In this document: positions 2,597 through 41,595 of the stretch, in pieces
Numbering within the stretch: position 1 is the first letter of the stretch
How the letters are laid out: each line of letters begins with the position of its first letter
Origin: a virus
DNA: 64,000 nucleotides
UHGV virus genome: UHGV-0018629
Direction: 5' to 3' (one strand)
Position numbers and translations under genes: made by a program
Notes under the pieces: generated by a model
Seen by the model: only the letters and a program-made list of their open reading frames with translations
The model's database searches: none
What the model was told of the DNA's origin: nothing

Positions 2597-4054
2597 ATGA
2601 TTGAATTAAAAGAGTTACCTTTTGTTGATAGCGTTCCTGGCGAAGGTCAGGAACGTATTTCATGGATTAAAAATGGTGAAGAAATACTAGGAGCTAGTAC
2701 TAAGTATGGAAACGATGGATCAATGAATAGACCAACTGTTTCCGTGTTTAAAAATGTTGAGGTTCTTGATGAAAATATAGGAATTCTTAAAACTGCCGTT
2801 GAAACATCACAGGAAGATATTAAAACAATTCAAGGCATTTTGGATGTATCTGGAGATATCGAAGCACTATCACAGATTAGCGTTAATAAAAATGACATAT
2901 CAAATTTAAAGACGCTTACGAATGAACACACTGATATATTAAATGGTACAAATACTACGGTTGACAGTATTCTTTCTGATATTGGTCCATTTAATTCGCA
3001 AGCAAATTCAGTTTATAGAACAGTTCGAAATGATTTGTTATGGATTAAAAGGGAATTAGGACAATATGCTGGACAAGATATTAATGGTCTTCCTGTTGTA
3101 GGAAATACTAGTACTGGAATGAAACATCGTATTATTAATAATACTGATGCTATAACTTCTCAAGGAATACGTTTAAGCGATTTAGAAGAAAAATTTATTG
3201 AATCTGATGTAGGTTCGCTTACAATAGAAGTAGGAAATCTTAGACAGGAATTAGGGCAAAGACCGCCTTCATTTAGTGAAAGCATATATTCACGCGTATA
3301 TAATTTAGATCAAGCGCAAATTGATCTAAATTCTGAAATTAAATTTATAAAAACTTCTATTGGATATCCAGGAAATACTTCAATAATCACAGATGTCAAT
3401 GTCAATAGTCAAGAAATTTCAGCTTTAAATGATGAACTAAATAAAAGTGGCGGCGTTAAACAACGATTAACTGTTATTGAAACATCGATTGGTTCAGATG
3501 ATATTCCTTCTAGTATTAAAGGTCAAATTAAAGATAATACCACTTCTATTGAATCTTTAAATGGAATTGTAGGTGAAAACACCTCGTCTGGTTTAAGAGC
3601 CAATGTTTCATGGCTAAATCAGATAGTTGGAACTAATTCTAGCGGAGGCCAACCTTCTCCTCCGGGGTCTCTTTTAAATAGAGTTTCAACTGTTGAAACC
3701 TCTGTTAATAGACTTAACAATGATGTTCAAAACTTGCAAGTTGAAATTGGTAATAACAATTCCGGAATTAAAGGACAGGTTGTAACATTAAATAAATTAG
3801 TAAATGGAACAAATCCAAATGGTTCAACTGTCGAAGAACGTGGATTAACTAATTCAATAAAAGCTAATGAAACTAACATTTCTTCTATTAATCAAGAAAT
3901 GCGTAGTATTAAAAGTAATGTATCTTCATTACAGGCGGATGTTCAGACTTTACAGGAAGCAGGTTATATTCCTGAAGCTCCAAAAGATGGTCAAGCTTAC
4001 GTTCGTAAAGACGGCGAATGGGTATTACTTTCTACCTTTTTATCACCAGCATAA
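2597..4054 (+). CDS. wac: Fibritin (whisker antigen control, neck whiskers)
   Basis: 485 aa; long heptad-repeat coiled coil; C-terminal foldon-like sequence [27 protein letters not shown]. Confidence 0.93.
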
Positions 4055-5829: not shown

Positions 5830-8970
<3,141 letters not shown>

Positions 8971-32486: not shown

Positions 32487-32539
32487 CCTCATATTATGTC
32501 AGTAAGACTATTATAACACAACACGAGGGACTTGTAAAC
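32487..32539 (-). promoter_or_regulatory. T4 early-type promoter (GTTTAC -35, TGTTATAAT extended -10) inside a ~53-bp element repeated at 48359..48411
   Basis: Reverse complement reads GTTTACaagtccctcgtgttgtgTTATAAT. Confidence 0.5.
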
Positions 32540-34596
32540 TACATCTTGAACTTTTTAGACATTCCGTTGATGTTAACCAAAGAAGCCAATATTTGAGAAA
32601 CTTCGTTTTCCTCTTCTTTTGATTCTTCTACAAGGAATTGATTAAACCCAGCCATTGGACGAACTTCACCAGTTTCCATTAGATGATCGCCATCATATAC
32701 TGATTCTTCTAATTGTTCAGAAGGAGGAACGATTGTGCCTTCGATTAGATACTTATTATAAGCAGTTTCTTTCGTCATGTACGTACTTACTTTATTAATC
32801 TTCAGTAAAATTCCACGTGGCAAAATAACTTCAGCTTCGGATGGAAATCCTGATAAATGACCTGGAACGATAACTTTAACTCGTTCAGCTCCTTTAATTA
32901 CCATACCTACATTAGTTTCAGCGTCTTCATTCGCATATGTAGAATGACTACCCATATGCATTAAATCTTCGGCATCAACTGAACCTTCTCCTTCGCCAGA
33001 AAATACTGCTCCGGAATCATCTAGAGCCATATAATTTTTACCATACTCACCAAAGATATTTGGTTTAAGTGATGTCGATACGAAGTTCTTGAAATAGAAC
33101 ATTTTATTTTCAATGTTATGACGCAAAGTTTTAAAGGTAACTTCTTGCCCGCGATAAAGAGTAGTTCCTGGAGGAAGAACTGAACCTTTAGTAAATGCAG
33201 AATCCAACGCTTCGATGTTCTTAATAGCACGTTCCATATATTCTTCACGGGTGGAATCTGGTTTACCTAAAAGGAACGAGTTCATTTCAACATATGAATC
33301 TGCACAATACTCTTCAATTACATCAGACTCAGCCTGAGTTAATCCTTTTGGAGTTACTTCAGTGCTTGCATATTCATACGCCTGAGCAGCGGATTCATCA
33401 ATCAATTTATAAATTCCATTCATTACAAATTGAATAATAGCTGTCTTTTCATCTGGTGTAGCTTTAGAACCTTTAACTAAATCATTGATAATTTTCTTAA
33501 TAACATCAAAGCTATTAGAAATATTAATATCAGCAAGATCGCTTAAAATTTTATCAGCTTTATAATTAAAAAATTCTTTATTCTTTGAATATTCCTGAGA
33601 ACCTTGATATGATATATCGCTCTGCAACTTGATAGATGGATCACGTAAACGTGCATGAGCCAATGCAATATGATTTCTGAAGCTTTCTAATTCATAATCG
33701 CTAGATTTAAAACGAGAAGCACTTCTCATACCACCGATAGCTCCTTTGCTGAAGTTTGAACCAACTTGAATAACACCAGAGTTCATCGGTCCTTCTGCTT
33801 TATATACCGGAACTTTAGATTCAAACTCTTGATATTTCTTGGCAGCGAAGCTATCACCCTGAAGTGAAGCATCAACAGTAGAATATTGAGCTTGTGCTGC
33901 TAATCGACGACTAATTTTAGTTTTTTGAATAACAACTTGATCCGTGCGCTTATCATTTTCTAAAGCAATAGAAGCAGCAACAGCAACAGCTTTAGGAACA
34001 GCATTTCCTGTTTTAACGTCTACATAAACATCACCGACCTTTGATTCAACTTTTGTGAATAGCTCTGTTGAAATAGGAGGTACACCTGGAATGTCTTCTA
34101 AATTGGCATTTTTACGGTAAACCATAATATATGCATACTTTTTATCATAATCCCAGATTTCCTTTAAAAGAACGTATCGACCTGCTCCTTTAGTACGTAC
34201 TAAACGGTCAGCAATAACTTGCATTTGACGAGCTGCGCCATTTGTTTTACTCTTTAGTACGCGGAATAAGCATGCATCAATTTTATACTGTTTCATTGTT
34301 TGAAGAGCAGTATCAAAAACCGCATTAATGACACCAATTGGATTTCCACCTAAGTTTTTAAGTTTAACTAATGATAGTTTCTCATTAACACCTATCATTA
34401 CGATATGCATCATTTTATCGCCTGGCTTAACGTTTTTATTTGTATCACCACCAGAAGTGTATGTACAAAATCTAAATCCAGGGAGAACACTTTCTTCACC
34501 GGCTTGAATAGCAAAAATTTGAGGTATTTTATGCTTAGGATTTAAGTTAACAACCGGCGCCGAAGCGCCGTCAAATAATTCTGTAATAAGTTCCAT
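32539..34596 (-). CDS. Alt-like ADP-ribosyltransferase paralog (upstream copy)
   Basis: 685 aa; N-terminus MELITELFD; C-terminal ART motifs YRGQ, FVSTSL, SEAEVILPRG; about 60% N-terminal identity to the adjacent copy. Confidence 0.85.
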   Translation of the reverse strand: MELITELFDGASAPVVNLNPKHKIPQIFAIQAGEESVLPGFRFCTYTSGGDTNKNVKPGDKMMHIVMIGVNEKLSLVKLKNLGGNPIGVINAVFDTALQTMKQYKIDACLFRVLKSKTNGAARQMQVIADRLVRTKGAGRYVLLKEIWDYDKKYAYIMVYRKNANLEDIPGVPPISTELFTKVESKVGDVYVDVKTGNAVPKAVAVAASIALENDKRTDQVVIQKTKISRRLAAQAQYSTVDASLQGDSFAAKKYQEFESKVPVYKAEGPMNSGVIQVGSNFSKGAIGGMRSASRFKSSDYELESFRNHIALAHARLRDPSIKLQSDISYQGSQEYSKNKEFFNYKADKILSDLADINISNSFDVIKKIINDLVKGSKATPDEKTAIIQFVMNGIYKLIDESAAQAYEYASTEVTPKGLTQAESDVIEEYCADSYVEMNSFLLGKPDSTREEYMERAIKNIEALDSAFTKGSVLPPGTTLYRGQEVTFKTLRHNIENKMFYFKNFVSTSLKPNIFGEYGKNYMALDDSGAVFSGEGEGSVDAEDLMHMGSHSTYANEDAETNVGMVIKGAERVKVIVPGHLSGFPSEAEVILPRGILLKINKVSTYMTKETAYNKYLIEGTIVPPSEQLEESVYDGDHLMETGEVRPMAGFNQFLVEESKEEENEVSQILASLVNINGMSKKFKM

Positions 34597-34599
34597 GAT

Positions 34600-36696
34600 T
34601 TATCCTTGAACGAACTTGTAAGGCATGTTTGTAATATCTATGCAAGACGCAATAATTCCAAGAGATGATTCTACTTTTTGTTTAACATTTGATGAAACAA
34701 ATGATGCAAAGTCAACTCTGTCTTCTATTTCAATATCACCTGTCATTGCAACTACTTCACCGGTTTCCATTAGATGGTCTCCGTCATAGATTACCGATTC
34801 GGTGAGTTCTTCTATGGTCATAACTTCAGCTTGAATGAGTTTTGTATTATTAGATGTTGTTCCGTCATTATTAGAAGCATCAGTTATTTTATTAACTTTA
34901 ACCATCAATCCGCGCGGTAGAATAACTTCAGCTTCTGTTGCTATTCCGAGACTTCCTGGATATACAACATTAACTTTATGAGCTCCATCAATTGCCCATC
35001 CTATTTGAACTTTAACGTATTCAGGATTTTCTTTATACGCTCTTATTTCATTTGGATTAATAGTTATTCCTTCTTCATTTTTATCAACTGTCAATTCATT
35101 ACGAGCTTCTGGTTCTAAAAGACCAATACCAGCATGTGTAATTCCAAAACGTCCAAAAATGATAGGAGTTAAAGAAGTAGATACAAAATTTCTGAAATAG
35201 AACACTTTATTTTTAACTAGTGCTTCGTATATAGGAGCAGTCATACTTTGAGCACGATAAACTGTGATGCCTTCCGGTATACGGTCACCATTTTCAAAAG
35301 CTGAATCTAAGTTATTTATAGCAGATTCAATTTCTTTTTCACTCATTACATCATATCGTTCTGGATTGTAACGACCTAAAAGAAGATTATTGATGTCAGT
35401 ATATCCTGAACCGCAATATTCTCTAATGCCACGCTTTTGTAATGGAGTATATTTAGAACCATCGCGGGCAATAGTAATATCAATCATTGAACCAGCACCA
35501 ATTCCAGAAAAACTGTAAATCATTCGTTTGAGGAATTTAGTTTTTGCTGCGTTCCAGGAATTTTTAGTTATTTCTTCCCAGACTTCATCTGGTTGTCCTT
35601 TACGGGTTTTATTATGACTAGCAAGCCATTTATCTTTATAATCTTCAAAGAATTTATTAACAGCTGCTGCGTATTTCTCTAAACATTTTATTGAAGTAGT
35701 TGGTTCATTTTTAATCGCGTTAAAAATTACATCTTTAATTTTTTCTGAAACTTCACCGACTTGACTCATTGGAAAGAATTTATAGTCATAGTGAAGTTCA
35801 TCTGCAGTTCCTTCAGCAATAATTTTTGCTGCCTTAGTTTTAGAAGCCAATGAATTAATTCCAAGTTTCATTTCTTCTGCTTCGGGAATTAAAGGAGCGG
35901 TAGCAGGTTTATTGAAATTAGCTGCGGTAGATTCATACTTCTGGAATAATTCACTTTCAAATCTAGAAGATTCTAATGATTGACTTTGTGCAATTGCTCT
36001 ACGGGAAATTTTAACTTTAACGATTACAGCTTGGTCAGAACGTTTATCGTTTTCTTGCGCAATAGATGCTGCAATTGCCTCATTTTTAGTTACTTGAGCT
36101 CCGGTATCTTTATTGATATAAACATCACCGACCTTCGATTCAACTTTAGTAAAGAGCTCGGTACTAATTTCCGGAACTCCTGGAATGTCTTCTAGTGATA
36201 CATTTTTGCGATGTATAAGAATATATGCATACTTTTTATCATAATCCCAGAGTTCCTTAAGAAGGACATATCTGCCACCTGAACGACTACGGATAAGTCT
36301 ATCAGCAATAACTTGAATTTGTCGAGCTTGACCAGCGGTTTTAGACTTAAGAATACGAAGCATGCAAGCATCAATTTTATACTGACGCATTGTTTGCATT
36401 GCAACAGTAAAAACTGAATTAATATAATTAATTGGGCTTGGACCGAGACCTTTCAATTTAGCAATTGAACCTTTAGCGGTTAATGTAAAAGGAACAATGT
36501 GCATCATTTTATCGCCCATTTTTAAATCACGGTTAGTATCACCTCCAGATGTATAGGTGCATAGACGAAAGCCTGGTTGTTCAATTGCATCATCAACGTG
36601 AACTGAAAAAATTTGTGGTATTTTCTTCTTTGGATTTAAGTTTGTAATCGGAAGAGTAGTATCTTCGTCAAATAATTCTGTAATAAGTTCCATCAT
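34600..36696 (-). CDS. alt: ADP-ribosyltransferase Alt (injected host RNA polymerase modifier)
   Basis: 698 aa; N-terminus MMELITELFDEDTTLPITNL; ART motifs YRAQ, FVSTSL, TEAEVILPRG. Confidence 0.88.
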   Translation of the reverse strand: MMELITELFDEDTTLPITNLNPKKKIPQIFSVHVDDAIEQPGFRLCTYTSGGDTNRDLKMGDKMMHIVPFTLTAKGSIAKLKGLGPSPINYINSVFTVAMQTMRQYKIDACMLRILKSKTAGQARQIQVIADRLIRSRSGGRYVLLKELWDYDKKYAYILIHRKNVSLEDIPGVPEISTELFTKVESKVGDVYINKDTGAQVTKNEAIAASIAQENDKRSDQAVIVKVKISRRAIAQSQSLESSRFESELFQKYESTAANFNKPATAPLIPEAEEMKLGINSLASKTKAAKIIAEGTADELHYDYKFFPMSQVGEVSEKIKDVIFNAIKNEPTTSIKCLEKYAAAVNKFFEDYKDKWLASHNKTRKGQPDEVWEEITKNSWNAAKTKFLKRMIYSFSGIGAGSMIDITIARDGSKYTPLQKRGIREYCGSGYTDINNLLLGRYNPERYDVMSEKEIESAINNLDSAFENGDRIPEGITVYRAQSMTAPIYEALVKNKVFYFRNFVSTSLTPIIFGRFGITHAGIGLLEPEARNELTVDKNEEGITINPNEIRAYKENPEYVKVQIGWAIDGAHKVNVVYPGSLGIATEAEVILPRGLMVKVNKITDASNNDGTTSNNTKLIQAEVMTIEELTESVIYDGDHLMETGEVVAMTGDIEIEDRVDFASFVSSNVKQKVESSLGIIASCIDITNMPYKFVQG

Positions 36697-36729
36697 ATCC
36701 TCTCTAGTGTTTATTCTATTTATAAAATT

Positions 36730-36747
36730 AAAGGCCCGAAGGCCTTT
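36730..36747 (-). terminator. Stem-loop AAAGGCC-CGA-AGGCCTTT between small ORF and alt
   Basis: Hairpin read in sequence. Confidence 0.45.
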
Positions 36748-38394: not shown

Positions 38395-38660
38395 TATTCG
38401 TCCTTCAGAGTTTGGTTTACAGCTCTATTATAAATCAATTCATCATTAAGCTCAGTCAAAGACCTATGATATGTAGTTCTAACTTTATTTCCTTGCATCC
38501 AGTGCTTGATATAAATGAAACCTTGCTCTACACATTTTTTAAAAATTCGTTCGTCTTTTTGAGCTCGGAATTCTGGATTGCATCTAAAAAATTGATTTAC
38601 GTGACCGTAATCACGTGTAGTATTACCTTCATTTTCATAAATAGTGTGAACGACAAACAT
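38394..38660 (-). CDS. Hypothetical protein (30.1-like)
   Basis: 88 aa ORF, ATGA overlap. Confidence 0.6.
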   Translation of the reverse strand: MFVVHTIYENEGNTTRDYGHVNQFFRCNPEFRAQKDERIFKKCVEQGFIYIKHWMQGNKVRTTYHRSLTELNDELIYNRAVNQTLKDE

Positions 38661-39505
38661 TAGAATGCTCCTTGGAAAATATTATCACCACAAGTAGGTC
38701 TATTATACAAATACTCTATGCCACCAGGTTTAATATAGTTCCATGTCTGAAATGGATGTGTCTGATATAGATGATATGGATTATAATGATTATAAGGATT
38801 AAATCCAGGAGTTCTCCAGGTAGTGTTCCAAGGAAAAGAATCGTTTTTAATCATCTTCTCGATTGCATCTTTTATAGCTTTTTCACTATCAAAACTTTCT
38901 TTATTTTCCTTTGGTGAAAAAAGCTTATTTTCTATATCATTCCATGTATAAACTCGCTGAGCAGTTTTTGGAATATTGTCACGCTCTCCTCGAGCCATCC
39001 AATAAACAGGAACATTTAATATTTCACTCGCATGATCACAATGATGAGCGAGATCGTCAATATAACAAATTACATTATATTTCTCTTTTGCCTTTTTGAA
39101 CAACTCTTCTTTTGAAGAATCATGTCCACACATCATTACTTCTGAGAAGGCACCAGGAAAAAGAGCATTCAAATTAAATTGACGATTCAACAGAGCATCA
39201 ATAGAATCACCCAGTGCTGTAACAGCCACAAAATTATAATCTTCTTTTAATTTGTTAATTACACACAGAGCATCTTTGTACGGAGACAAGTAACGAATAA
39301 AATCTGAGCGATTGTATTTTTCAATTAACTTGACACCAAGCTCTTCATCACAATTAAAGAGTTTACCTGGAGAAATAAATTTCTCATCTTGGATCATTTT
39401 TAAAATATGTTCTAATGGAAGATTATATTTCTGAGCAAAATAAGGAAGGCCCGATTGCCAGCTTAAACATACTCCATCAATATCAGTTAAAATAGTAGGC
39501 TTCAT
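38660..39505 (-). CDS. Hypothetical protein with HAD-phosphatase-like N-terminal motif (30.2-like)
   Basis: 281 aa; N-terminal ILTDIDGV motif. Confidence 0.65.
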   Translation of the reverse strand: MKPTILTDIDGVCLSWQSGLPYFAQKYNLPLEHILKMIQDEKFISPGKLFNCDEELGVKLIEKYNRSDFIRYLSPYKDALCVINKLKEDYNFVAVTALGDSIDALLNRQFNLNALFPGAFSEVMMCGHDSSKEELFKKAKEKYNVICYIDDLAHHCDHASEILNVPVYWMARGERDNIPKTAQRVYTWNDIENKLFSPKENKESFDSEKAIKDAIEKMIKNDSFPWNTTWRTPGFNPYNHYNPYHLYQTHPFQTWNYIKPGGIEYLYNRPTCGDNIFQGAF

Positions 39506-39966
39506 AGAGAGTCTCTTAATAGGTTTAACACATCAATAAATTCAGCTTCGGTTAGTATTGTATCATCTTTTGTTAGACCACTAGCCATGCTATGCTTCAA
39601 AACTTTTCCTTTCGAGGCTTGTAATGCATCGCGAAAGCCCCTGTTTTGGAACGCTGCTTCAAAATATGCATTTGTGTATAATTCTTTCCACGCTGGAGAG
39701 TATCTTGAAAACGGAGTTCCAAGCCAGAAGAGGGTCCCACGGTCCTGAGCTCTAGCATAAGACCTTCCAGCTTGTTGGGCGGCAAGCCCGGATAACCCAA
39801 ATATACGACGTTGCTGTTCAACATTTTTCACCTTGCAACCTTGGAGGAATCCTTCGAGACCTCCAAATTGAATGCCATCCATAATGAAAGGCCATTGGGC
39901 GAAATTACTTAATGCGCATGATGGCCATCTAAAATTGCTTCTAATCTCTAACTCAGACATTTTCAA
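39502..39966 (-). CDS. NADAR-family (YbiA/DUF1768-like) protein candidate (30.3-like)
   Basis: 154 aa; N-terminal WPSCALSNFAQWPF resembles the NADAR signature. Confidence 0.6.
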   Translation of the reverse strand: MKMSELEIRSNFRWPSCALSNFAQWPFIMDGIQFGGLEGFLQGCKVKNVEQQRRIFGLSGLAAQQAGRSYARAQDRGTLFWLGTPFSRYSPAWKELYTNAYFEAAFQNRGFRDALQASKGKVLKHSMASGLTKDDTILTEAEFIDVLNLLRDSL

Positions 39967-41570: not shown

Positions 41571-41590
41571 AAGGACTCCCGAAGGAGTCC
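41571..41590 (-). terminator. Stem-loop AGGACTCC-CGAA-GGAGTCCT
   Basis: Perfect 8-bp stem hairpin. Confidence 0.5.
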
Positions 41591-41595
41591 TCAAC

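Follow-up and report, generated by a model that had tools for sequence, protein, structure and literature searches.

The DNA analysed here, referred to as the window, is a stretch of 64,000 nucleotides from the virus genome UHGV-0018629. The sequence around the open reading frame (ORF) under study matches 661 phage records, mostly of Escherichia and Shigella T4-like phages and with a best identity of 96.8%, and by these matches the window is T4-like phage DNA (Tequatrovirus). Genes in this region follow the order and orientation seen in T4, 30.7...30.4-30.3-30.2-30.1-30(ligase)-alt.1-alt, and the nearby ORFs encode an ATP-dependent DNA ligase (gp30), a DUF3045 protein (gp30.1), a Phage_T4_Gp30_7 protein, the alt.1 'blade' protein and two proteins of 698 and 685 aa carrying ADP-ribosyltransferase domains. 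The ORF corresponding to gene 30.3, now called adfN, is flanked by 30.4, the product of which has no Pfam match, and by 30.2, which encodes a protein with a HAD fold (Table 1).

Table 1. Coordinates and supporting evidence for the features of the adfN locus and its surroundings in the window.
Feature	Position in window	Strand	Basis
adfN (gene 30.3) coding sequence, 152 aa from ATG	39502..39960	-	ORF list, identity to T4, PF08010, T4 annotation of 459 nt
30.4 stop (TGA) / adfN start (ATG), 8-nt overlap	39953..39960	-	Sequence ATGTCTGA; annotated in T4 with the same overlap
adfN stop / 30.2 start, ATGA overlap	39502..39505	-	Sequence; bases common to both ORFs
Glu36 codon GAA, catalytic glutamate	39853..39855	-	Sequence; invariant in 51/51; aligns with the Glu of YbiA SEHYFQ
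Lys43 codon AAG, ADP-ribose-contacting lysine	39832..39834	-	Sequence; conserved in 50/51; aligns with the YbiA Lys
His123 codon CAT, putative third catalytic position	39592..39594	-	Invariant in 51/51; last beta-strand of the model, E120-123
C-terminal alpha-helix, residues 138-151, intact	39508..39549	-	AF2 H138-151; full-length T4 alignment through residue 152
Gene 30.2, 281 aa, translationally coupled to adfN	38660..39505	-	
ORF 30.3', 75 aa, out of frame inside adfN	39597..39824	-	Annotated in T4; phrog_14037 match
Two tandem full-length Alt-like ADP-ribosyltransferase genes	32539..34596 and 34600..36696	-	

The uninterrupted minus-strand ORF spans positions 39502 to 39966, encodes 154 aa if read from a TTG codon, and contains both of the segments (RWPSCALSNFAQWPF and GLEGFLQ) that had been singled out as NADAR-like in an earlier note on this DNA. 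The Pfam PF08010 (Phage_30_3) match at E = 8.3e-69, together with gp30.3-family homologues identified via tblastn in 1511 phage records, places the ORF far beyond chance. The 154-aa ORF of the earlier note is hence real, but its coding sequence is more likely the 152 aa that begin at the ATG at position 39960, two codons past the TTG. This start is preferred because T4 annotates the same one (8308..8766 of the T4 locus L001, 459 nt), because the published catalytic numbering (E36/K43) then fits, and because the ATG overlaps the stop codon of 30.4 (ATGTCTGA) while the 30.3 stop in turn overlaps the 30.2 start (ATGA). The 8-nt overlap between 30.4 and adfN would be consistent with translational coupling. 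Overlaps of the same kind are found at the 30.2/30.1, 30.1/30 and 30/alt.1 junctions, and the genes from 30.4 through alt.1 therefore form one tightly packed block.

The protein encoded from this ATG has the same length as T4 gp30.3 and aligns with it gaplessly over all 152 aa, with 147/152 residues identical (97%). The PF08010 match scores 230.2 bits against a gathering cutoff of 36 and pairs residues 13-152 of the 154-aa ORF with profile positions 1-138 of 138; phrog_652 is matched as well (E = 1e-50). High identity and a location between 30.4 and 30.2, upstream of the ligase gene, are thus both found, and on these grounds the ORF is orthologous to T4 gene 30.3 (adfN, anti-DarT factor NADAR). 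The only differences from the T4 protein are V26I, V82T, I104F, K107R and I125M. All five fall in variable columns of a 51-sequence family alignment, in which methionine is the majority residue at position 125, and a functional difference would not be expected from these conservative substitutions.

Assignment of the protein to the NADAR superfamily was evaluated with sequence models and with a predicted structure. Used as a single query, the protein shows no match to the Pfam NADAR model (PF08719) at E-values up to 10, a phmmer search against PDB sequences returned nothing meaningful, and the match to TIGR02464 (E = 0.15) reaches 12.3 bits, versus a cutoff of 73.7, over residues 16-52, the very segment flagged in the earlier note. 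Since no single-protein comparison with NADAR models is significant, the assignment depends on the family as a whole and on the predicted structure. Built from 51 homologues, a family profile identifies E. coli YbiA (2b3w) as its sole sequence-profile match in the PDB (E = 0.0032), across the catalytic segment, and the corresponding alignment pairs LSNF...EGFLQ..K in the window protein with FSNF...SEHYFQAQK in YbiA. Individually, 19/51 family members match PF08719, the best at 1.5e-7, and several homologues are labelled 'YbiA (DUF1768 family)' by JGI. The AF2 model of the protein (pLDDT 93.2, pTM 0.89) adopts a NADAR fold, and its top three Foldseek matches in the PDB are all NADARs, namely YbiA (2b3w; E = 5e-5, TM 0.67), PnNADAR (8bau) and the G. 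lovleyi NADAR (8bat), each with a probability of at least 0.99; the next match has a probability of 0.02, and no other reaches 0.1. Judged by the family profile and the AF2 model, membership of the NADAR superfamily holds up. The N-terminal signature proposed in the earlier note is therefore borne out, with the HMM support for it residing in the family and not in the single protein.

The prominence of YbiA in these searches, as the best structural match, as the only sequence-profile match in the PDB and through the weak TIGR02464 match over residues 16-52, could be read as pointing to a housekeeping N-glycosidase of the YbiA type, which would break down reactive intermediates of the riboflavin pathway, and not to a DNA de-ADP-ribosylase. 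We consider this reading extremely improbable, given that the TIGR02464 score lies far below the cutoff of the YbiA equivalog, that the gp30.3 clade has His where a Glu defines the YbiA clade, that a published phylogeny places the gp30.3 cluster nearest to DarG1-type NADARs, and that the T4 orthologue has been shown both to hydrolyse guanine-ADPr in DNA and to have a phenotype specific to DarTG1. YbiA, the riboflavin-intermediate N-glycosidase of TIGR02464, does have the SNF...E..FQ..K motif in common with AdfN and it too removes guanine-ADPr in vitro (PMC11125620), but the two proteins are only 18% identical, and the context of YbiA is housekeeping and an SOS operon, as opposed to phage counter-defence for AdfN.

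The residues to which catalysis has been attributed in NADARs can be located in the window protein, which has the same E36, K43 and H123 as T4 gp30.3. The Glu and Lys are spaced by 7 residues, as they are in PnNADAR (E43/K50) and in the E. coli C7 NADAR (E88/K95), and the substitutions E36A and K43A lower the activity of T4 AdfN (PMC11825919). Published work places the third catalytic residue on the last strand, where YbiA-clade proteins have Glu, those of the DarG1 clade Asp and those of the phage gp30.3 clade His; His123 of the window protein would be the His that takes the place of this Glu or Asp, an equivalence that derives from strand position. The alignment accordingly retains the conserved catalytic residues expected of a NADAR enzyme, E36 and K43, accompanied by the clade-specific His.

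A natural inactive allele of the gene exists in RB69, in which a T insertion at nt 411 causes a frameshift and the loss of the last 15 residues, rendering the protein non-functional, and an RB69-like C-terminal truncation lowers the activity of T4 AdfN (PMC11825919). The possibility that the window allele has likewise decayed has next to no probability, since it is full length and free of frameshifts, its five substitutions leave all invariant family residues in place, and the C-terminal helix is retained and predicted with high confidence in the AF2 model. From the full length, the retained helix and the preservation of every invariant residue we infer, with high confidence, that the window allele is a functional adfN. 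RB69-like truncated alleles were also suspected in Mosigvirus and Yersinia phages, on account of tblastn alignments covering residues 1-146, and were rejected as an alignment artefact: the translated loci of mogra, SHSML-52-1 and VR7 contain full-length 152-aa gp30.3 genes.

The function of the T4 gene has been worked out by genetics and biochemistry. Resistance to DarTG1 was mapped to gene 30.3 via RB69 x T2/T4 chimeras, and the gene was renamed adfN (Johannesman et al., Nat Commun 2025, PMC11825919). T4 and T2 lose the ability to form plaques on DarTG1 hosts when adfN is deleted, RB69 is fully rescued by adfN supplied ectopically, and purified T4 AdfN takes ADP-ribose off DarT1-modified DNA, while neither binding DarT1 nor countering DarTG2 (PMC11825919). 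In vitro, T4 gp30.3 hydrolyses guanine-ADPr and not thymine-ADPr (Toxins 2024, PMC11125620), and 30.3/adfN insertions disappear from a T4 transposon screen only when the host carries DarTG1 (bioRxiv 10.1101/2025.11.20.689424). In Methods section 4.2 of PMC11125620, the construct for the T4 phage NADAR (gp30.3) is given as 'residues 1-208', versus the 152 aa encoded by T4 gene 30.3, a discrepancy that could reflect a different accession, included tags or an error.

Very probably, then, the ORF is the adfN orthologue of a T4-like phage, encoding a free-standing 152-aa NADAR-fold ADP-ribosylglycohydrolase that reverses the ADP-ribosylation of guanine by DarT1. During infection, the DarT1 toxin of the host would ADP-ribosylate guanines in the phage DNA, and AdfN would hydrolyse the N-glycosidic bond of guanine-ADP-ribose, with Glu36 and Lys43 holding the distal ribose and the diphosphate and His123 presumably providing the third catalytic position. 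Replicable DNA would thereby be restored, allowing plaques on DarTG1 hosts, and AdfN would achieve this without binding DarT1 and without acting on the thymine-ADPr generated by DarT2. What was observed in the window protein itself comprises its identity and orthology, its fold, its catalytic residues and its intact length; activity and counter-defence phenotype are those known for the 97%-identical T4 protein, and the window allele would be expected to behave in the same way.

The suggestion in the earlier note that the gene serves phage counter-defence through DNA de-ADP-ribosylation is thus supported by way of T4 AdfN (PMC11825919, PMC11125620 and bioRxiv 10.1101/2025.11.20.689424), although the proposed reversal of DarT-type modification applies to guanine-ADPr (DarT1) and not to thymine-ADPr (DarT2). 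The idea is correct but not new, as the finding is already known in detail. Its discovery value is small: bioinformatic work marked gene 30.3 as a putative NADAR years ago, its hydrolysis of guanine-ADPr in vitro was reported in 2024, and its role as the anti-DarTG1 factor AdfN was established by genetics and biochemistry in 2025. The practical use lies in annotation, since the gene can be labelled adfN where almost all related GenBank records say 'hypothetical protein', and in the prediction that the window's phage would plaque on E. coli carrying DarTG1.

Comparison with other systems acting on ADP-ribose places AdfN among several related solutions. DarG1, the DarT1-associated NADAR antitoxin known from E. 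coli C7 and Geobacter lovleyi (PDB 8bat; Schuller et al. 2023, PMC11543638), has the NADAR fold in common with AdfN (Foldseek probability 0.99), as well as a Glu and a Lys 7 residues apart and guanine-ADPr hydrolase chemistry, and both neutralise the product of the same toxin. AdfN differs from DarG1 in having His in place of Asp at the third catalytic position, in lacking an N-terminal extension (152 aa, with the first strand starting at residue 3) and in that T4 AdfN cannot substitute for it in uninfected cells; no darT1 lies next to adfN in the window, with no DarT domain in the ten flanking ORFs. AdfN(Bas32) and AdfN(Bas60), from T5-like and Vequintavirinae phages, are phage NADARs that counter DarTG1 and are guanine-ADPr-specific, as is gp30.3, but they fall into different NADAR clades (archaeal-like and stand-alone bacterial-like) and were acquired independently, and, unlike T4 AdfN, they need no T-even factors for their activity and relieve DarT1 toxicity in cells that are not infected. 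AdfA (T4 61.2) and AdfM (the T4 tk.4 macrodomain) are further T-even anti-DarTG factors. In contrast to AdfN, AdfA binds DarT1 and is not enzymatic (PMC11825919), whereas AdfM is a macrodomain directed against DarTG2 and thymine-ADPr (bioRxiv 10.1101/2025.11.20.689424).

T4 gp30.3 does not rescue DarT1 toxicity in uninfected cells (PMC11125620), and published work reports that T4 AdfN rescues non-T-even phages weakly and is fully active only in T-even infection; the mechanism of AdfN therefore includes a T-even-specific component. Among distant homologues of gp30.3, those of Ralstonia phage RSP15 (L005), Aeromonas phage AhMtk13a (L006) and Salmonella phage Melville (L007), each at 4001..~4450 of its locus, lie in or next to tRNA gene arrays. 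In Sinorhizobium phage phiN3 (L004, 4001..~4450), a tRNA nucleotidyltransferase gene follows the homologue at a distance of ~0.8 kb, and an RNA ligase gene precedes it by ~4 kb. Such placement could be incidental to accessory-gene regions or could be a hint of RNA-related substrates.

This placement, the dependence of full T4 AdfN activity on T-even infection, the presence of two ADP-ribosyltransferase genes (Alt paralogues) about 3 kb downstream and the fact that the AdfN authors themselves speculate on RNA-ADPr defences would all be compatible with a main physiological substrate other than DarT1-modified DNA, putatively RNA or tRNA carrying ADP-ribose, or molecules modified off target by the ADP-ribosyltransferases of the phage itself, with DarTG1 relief as one of several roles. 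We judge this to be very improbable. Because tRNA arrays sit in accessory-gene regions, the co-location may be incidental; gene 30.3 is not adjacent to tRNA genes in either T4 or the window; and the alt genes have a presumed late-promoter motif, TATAAATA, of their own. Furthermore, adfN is not required on E. coli K-12 lacking DarTG1 (bioRxiv 10.1101/2025.11.20.689424). For the gp30.3 (His-type) NADAR clade as a whole, a substrate or partner beyond DarT1-modified DNA, be it the reversal of RNA/tRNA ADP-ribosylation or a phage-encoded potentiating factor with gp30.2 as candidate, would be compatible with the recurrent association with tRNA arrays or tRNA repair in distant phages and with the need of T4 AdfN for T-even infection, but seems unlikely.

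The product of the adjacent gene 30.2 matches no Pfam family. It has a HAD-phosphatase fold in which D8, D10, K132, D150 and D151 are invariant, leaving the DxD...K...DD set intact, and its best PDB match is a cytosolic 5'(3')-deoxyribonucleotidase (Foldseek E = 3.6e-8; profile match E = 0.02). Its model combines a high-confidence core with a low-confidence, Asn/Tyr/Pro-rich C-terminal tail of ~80 residues. Gene 30.2 comes after 30.3 in Tequatrovirus, in Lazarusvirus (Acinetobacter) and in Slopekvirus (Klebsiella), and no gp30.2 was found within 4 kb of the gp30.3 homologue in Aeromonas, Gelderlandvirus, Sinorhizobium and Ralstonia phages, all but the Sinorhizobium phage being ones with the homologue among tRNA genes. 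As a T-even potentiating factor for AdfN, gp30.2 was considered and set aside, given that it is missing in these four lineages and that the T4 DarTG1 transposon screen, in the available part of its text, describes 30.3/adfN only; it is kept as a low-probability lead.

ORF 30.3' was evaluated as a second conserved product of the adfN region. It is open in the window, T4 and VR7, a stop codon breaks it in mogra (L008), and in SHSML-52-1 (L010) it is shorter. It differs from T4 at 8/75 residues, while the part of 30.3 that it overlaps has 4 differences. Because it is broken or short in two related phages and changes faster than 30.3, it was rejected in this role and is probably not a conserved coding gene.

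The earlier note had also placed the gene a few genes upstream of the alt ADP-ribosyltransferases and within the same early transcription unit. The first part is accurate, as adfN and the alt paralogues share a strand and are about 2.8 kb apart, with adfN upstream. The second part does not stand. Between alt.1 and the first alt gene (36696..36746, minus strand) lies the sequence AAAGGCCTTCGGGCCTTTAATTTT, a GC-rich hairpin, AAAGGCCTTCGGGCCTTT, with a T-rich tail; this hairpin was not listed by a scan for consensus terminators. On its 3' side, the hairpin is followed by TATAAATA at 36724..36717 (minus strand), which we take to be the T4 late-promoter consensus, then by a Shine-Dalgarno sequence, GAGAGG, and by the alt ATG. 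The hairpin and the TATAAATA motif between alt.1 and alt make a single early unit of adfN and alt unlikely, and suggest that alt is transcribed separately from the 30.x block, and late. Late expression is in keeping with the packaging of Alt into T4 virions.

The alt region itself departs from that of T4, which has one alt gene and the remnants alt.-1 and alt.-2, in containing two full-length paralogues. The upstream paralogue is 70% identical to T4 Alt and mosaic, with ~250 N-terminal and ~90 C-terminal residues near-identical to the T4 protein and a diverged centre that includes the ADP-ribosyltransferase region, whereas the downstream paralogue is 42% identical to T4 Alt and occupies the place of the alt.-1 and alt.-2 remnants. 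On the other side of adfN, a strong terminator-like hairpin, GAGGACTCCTTCGGGAGTCCTT followed by TTTTATTTT, is located at 41571..41592 (minus strand) upstream of a 30.8-like ORF, and likely marks a transcript boundary within the 30.x/rIII region.
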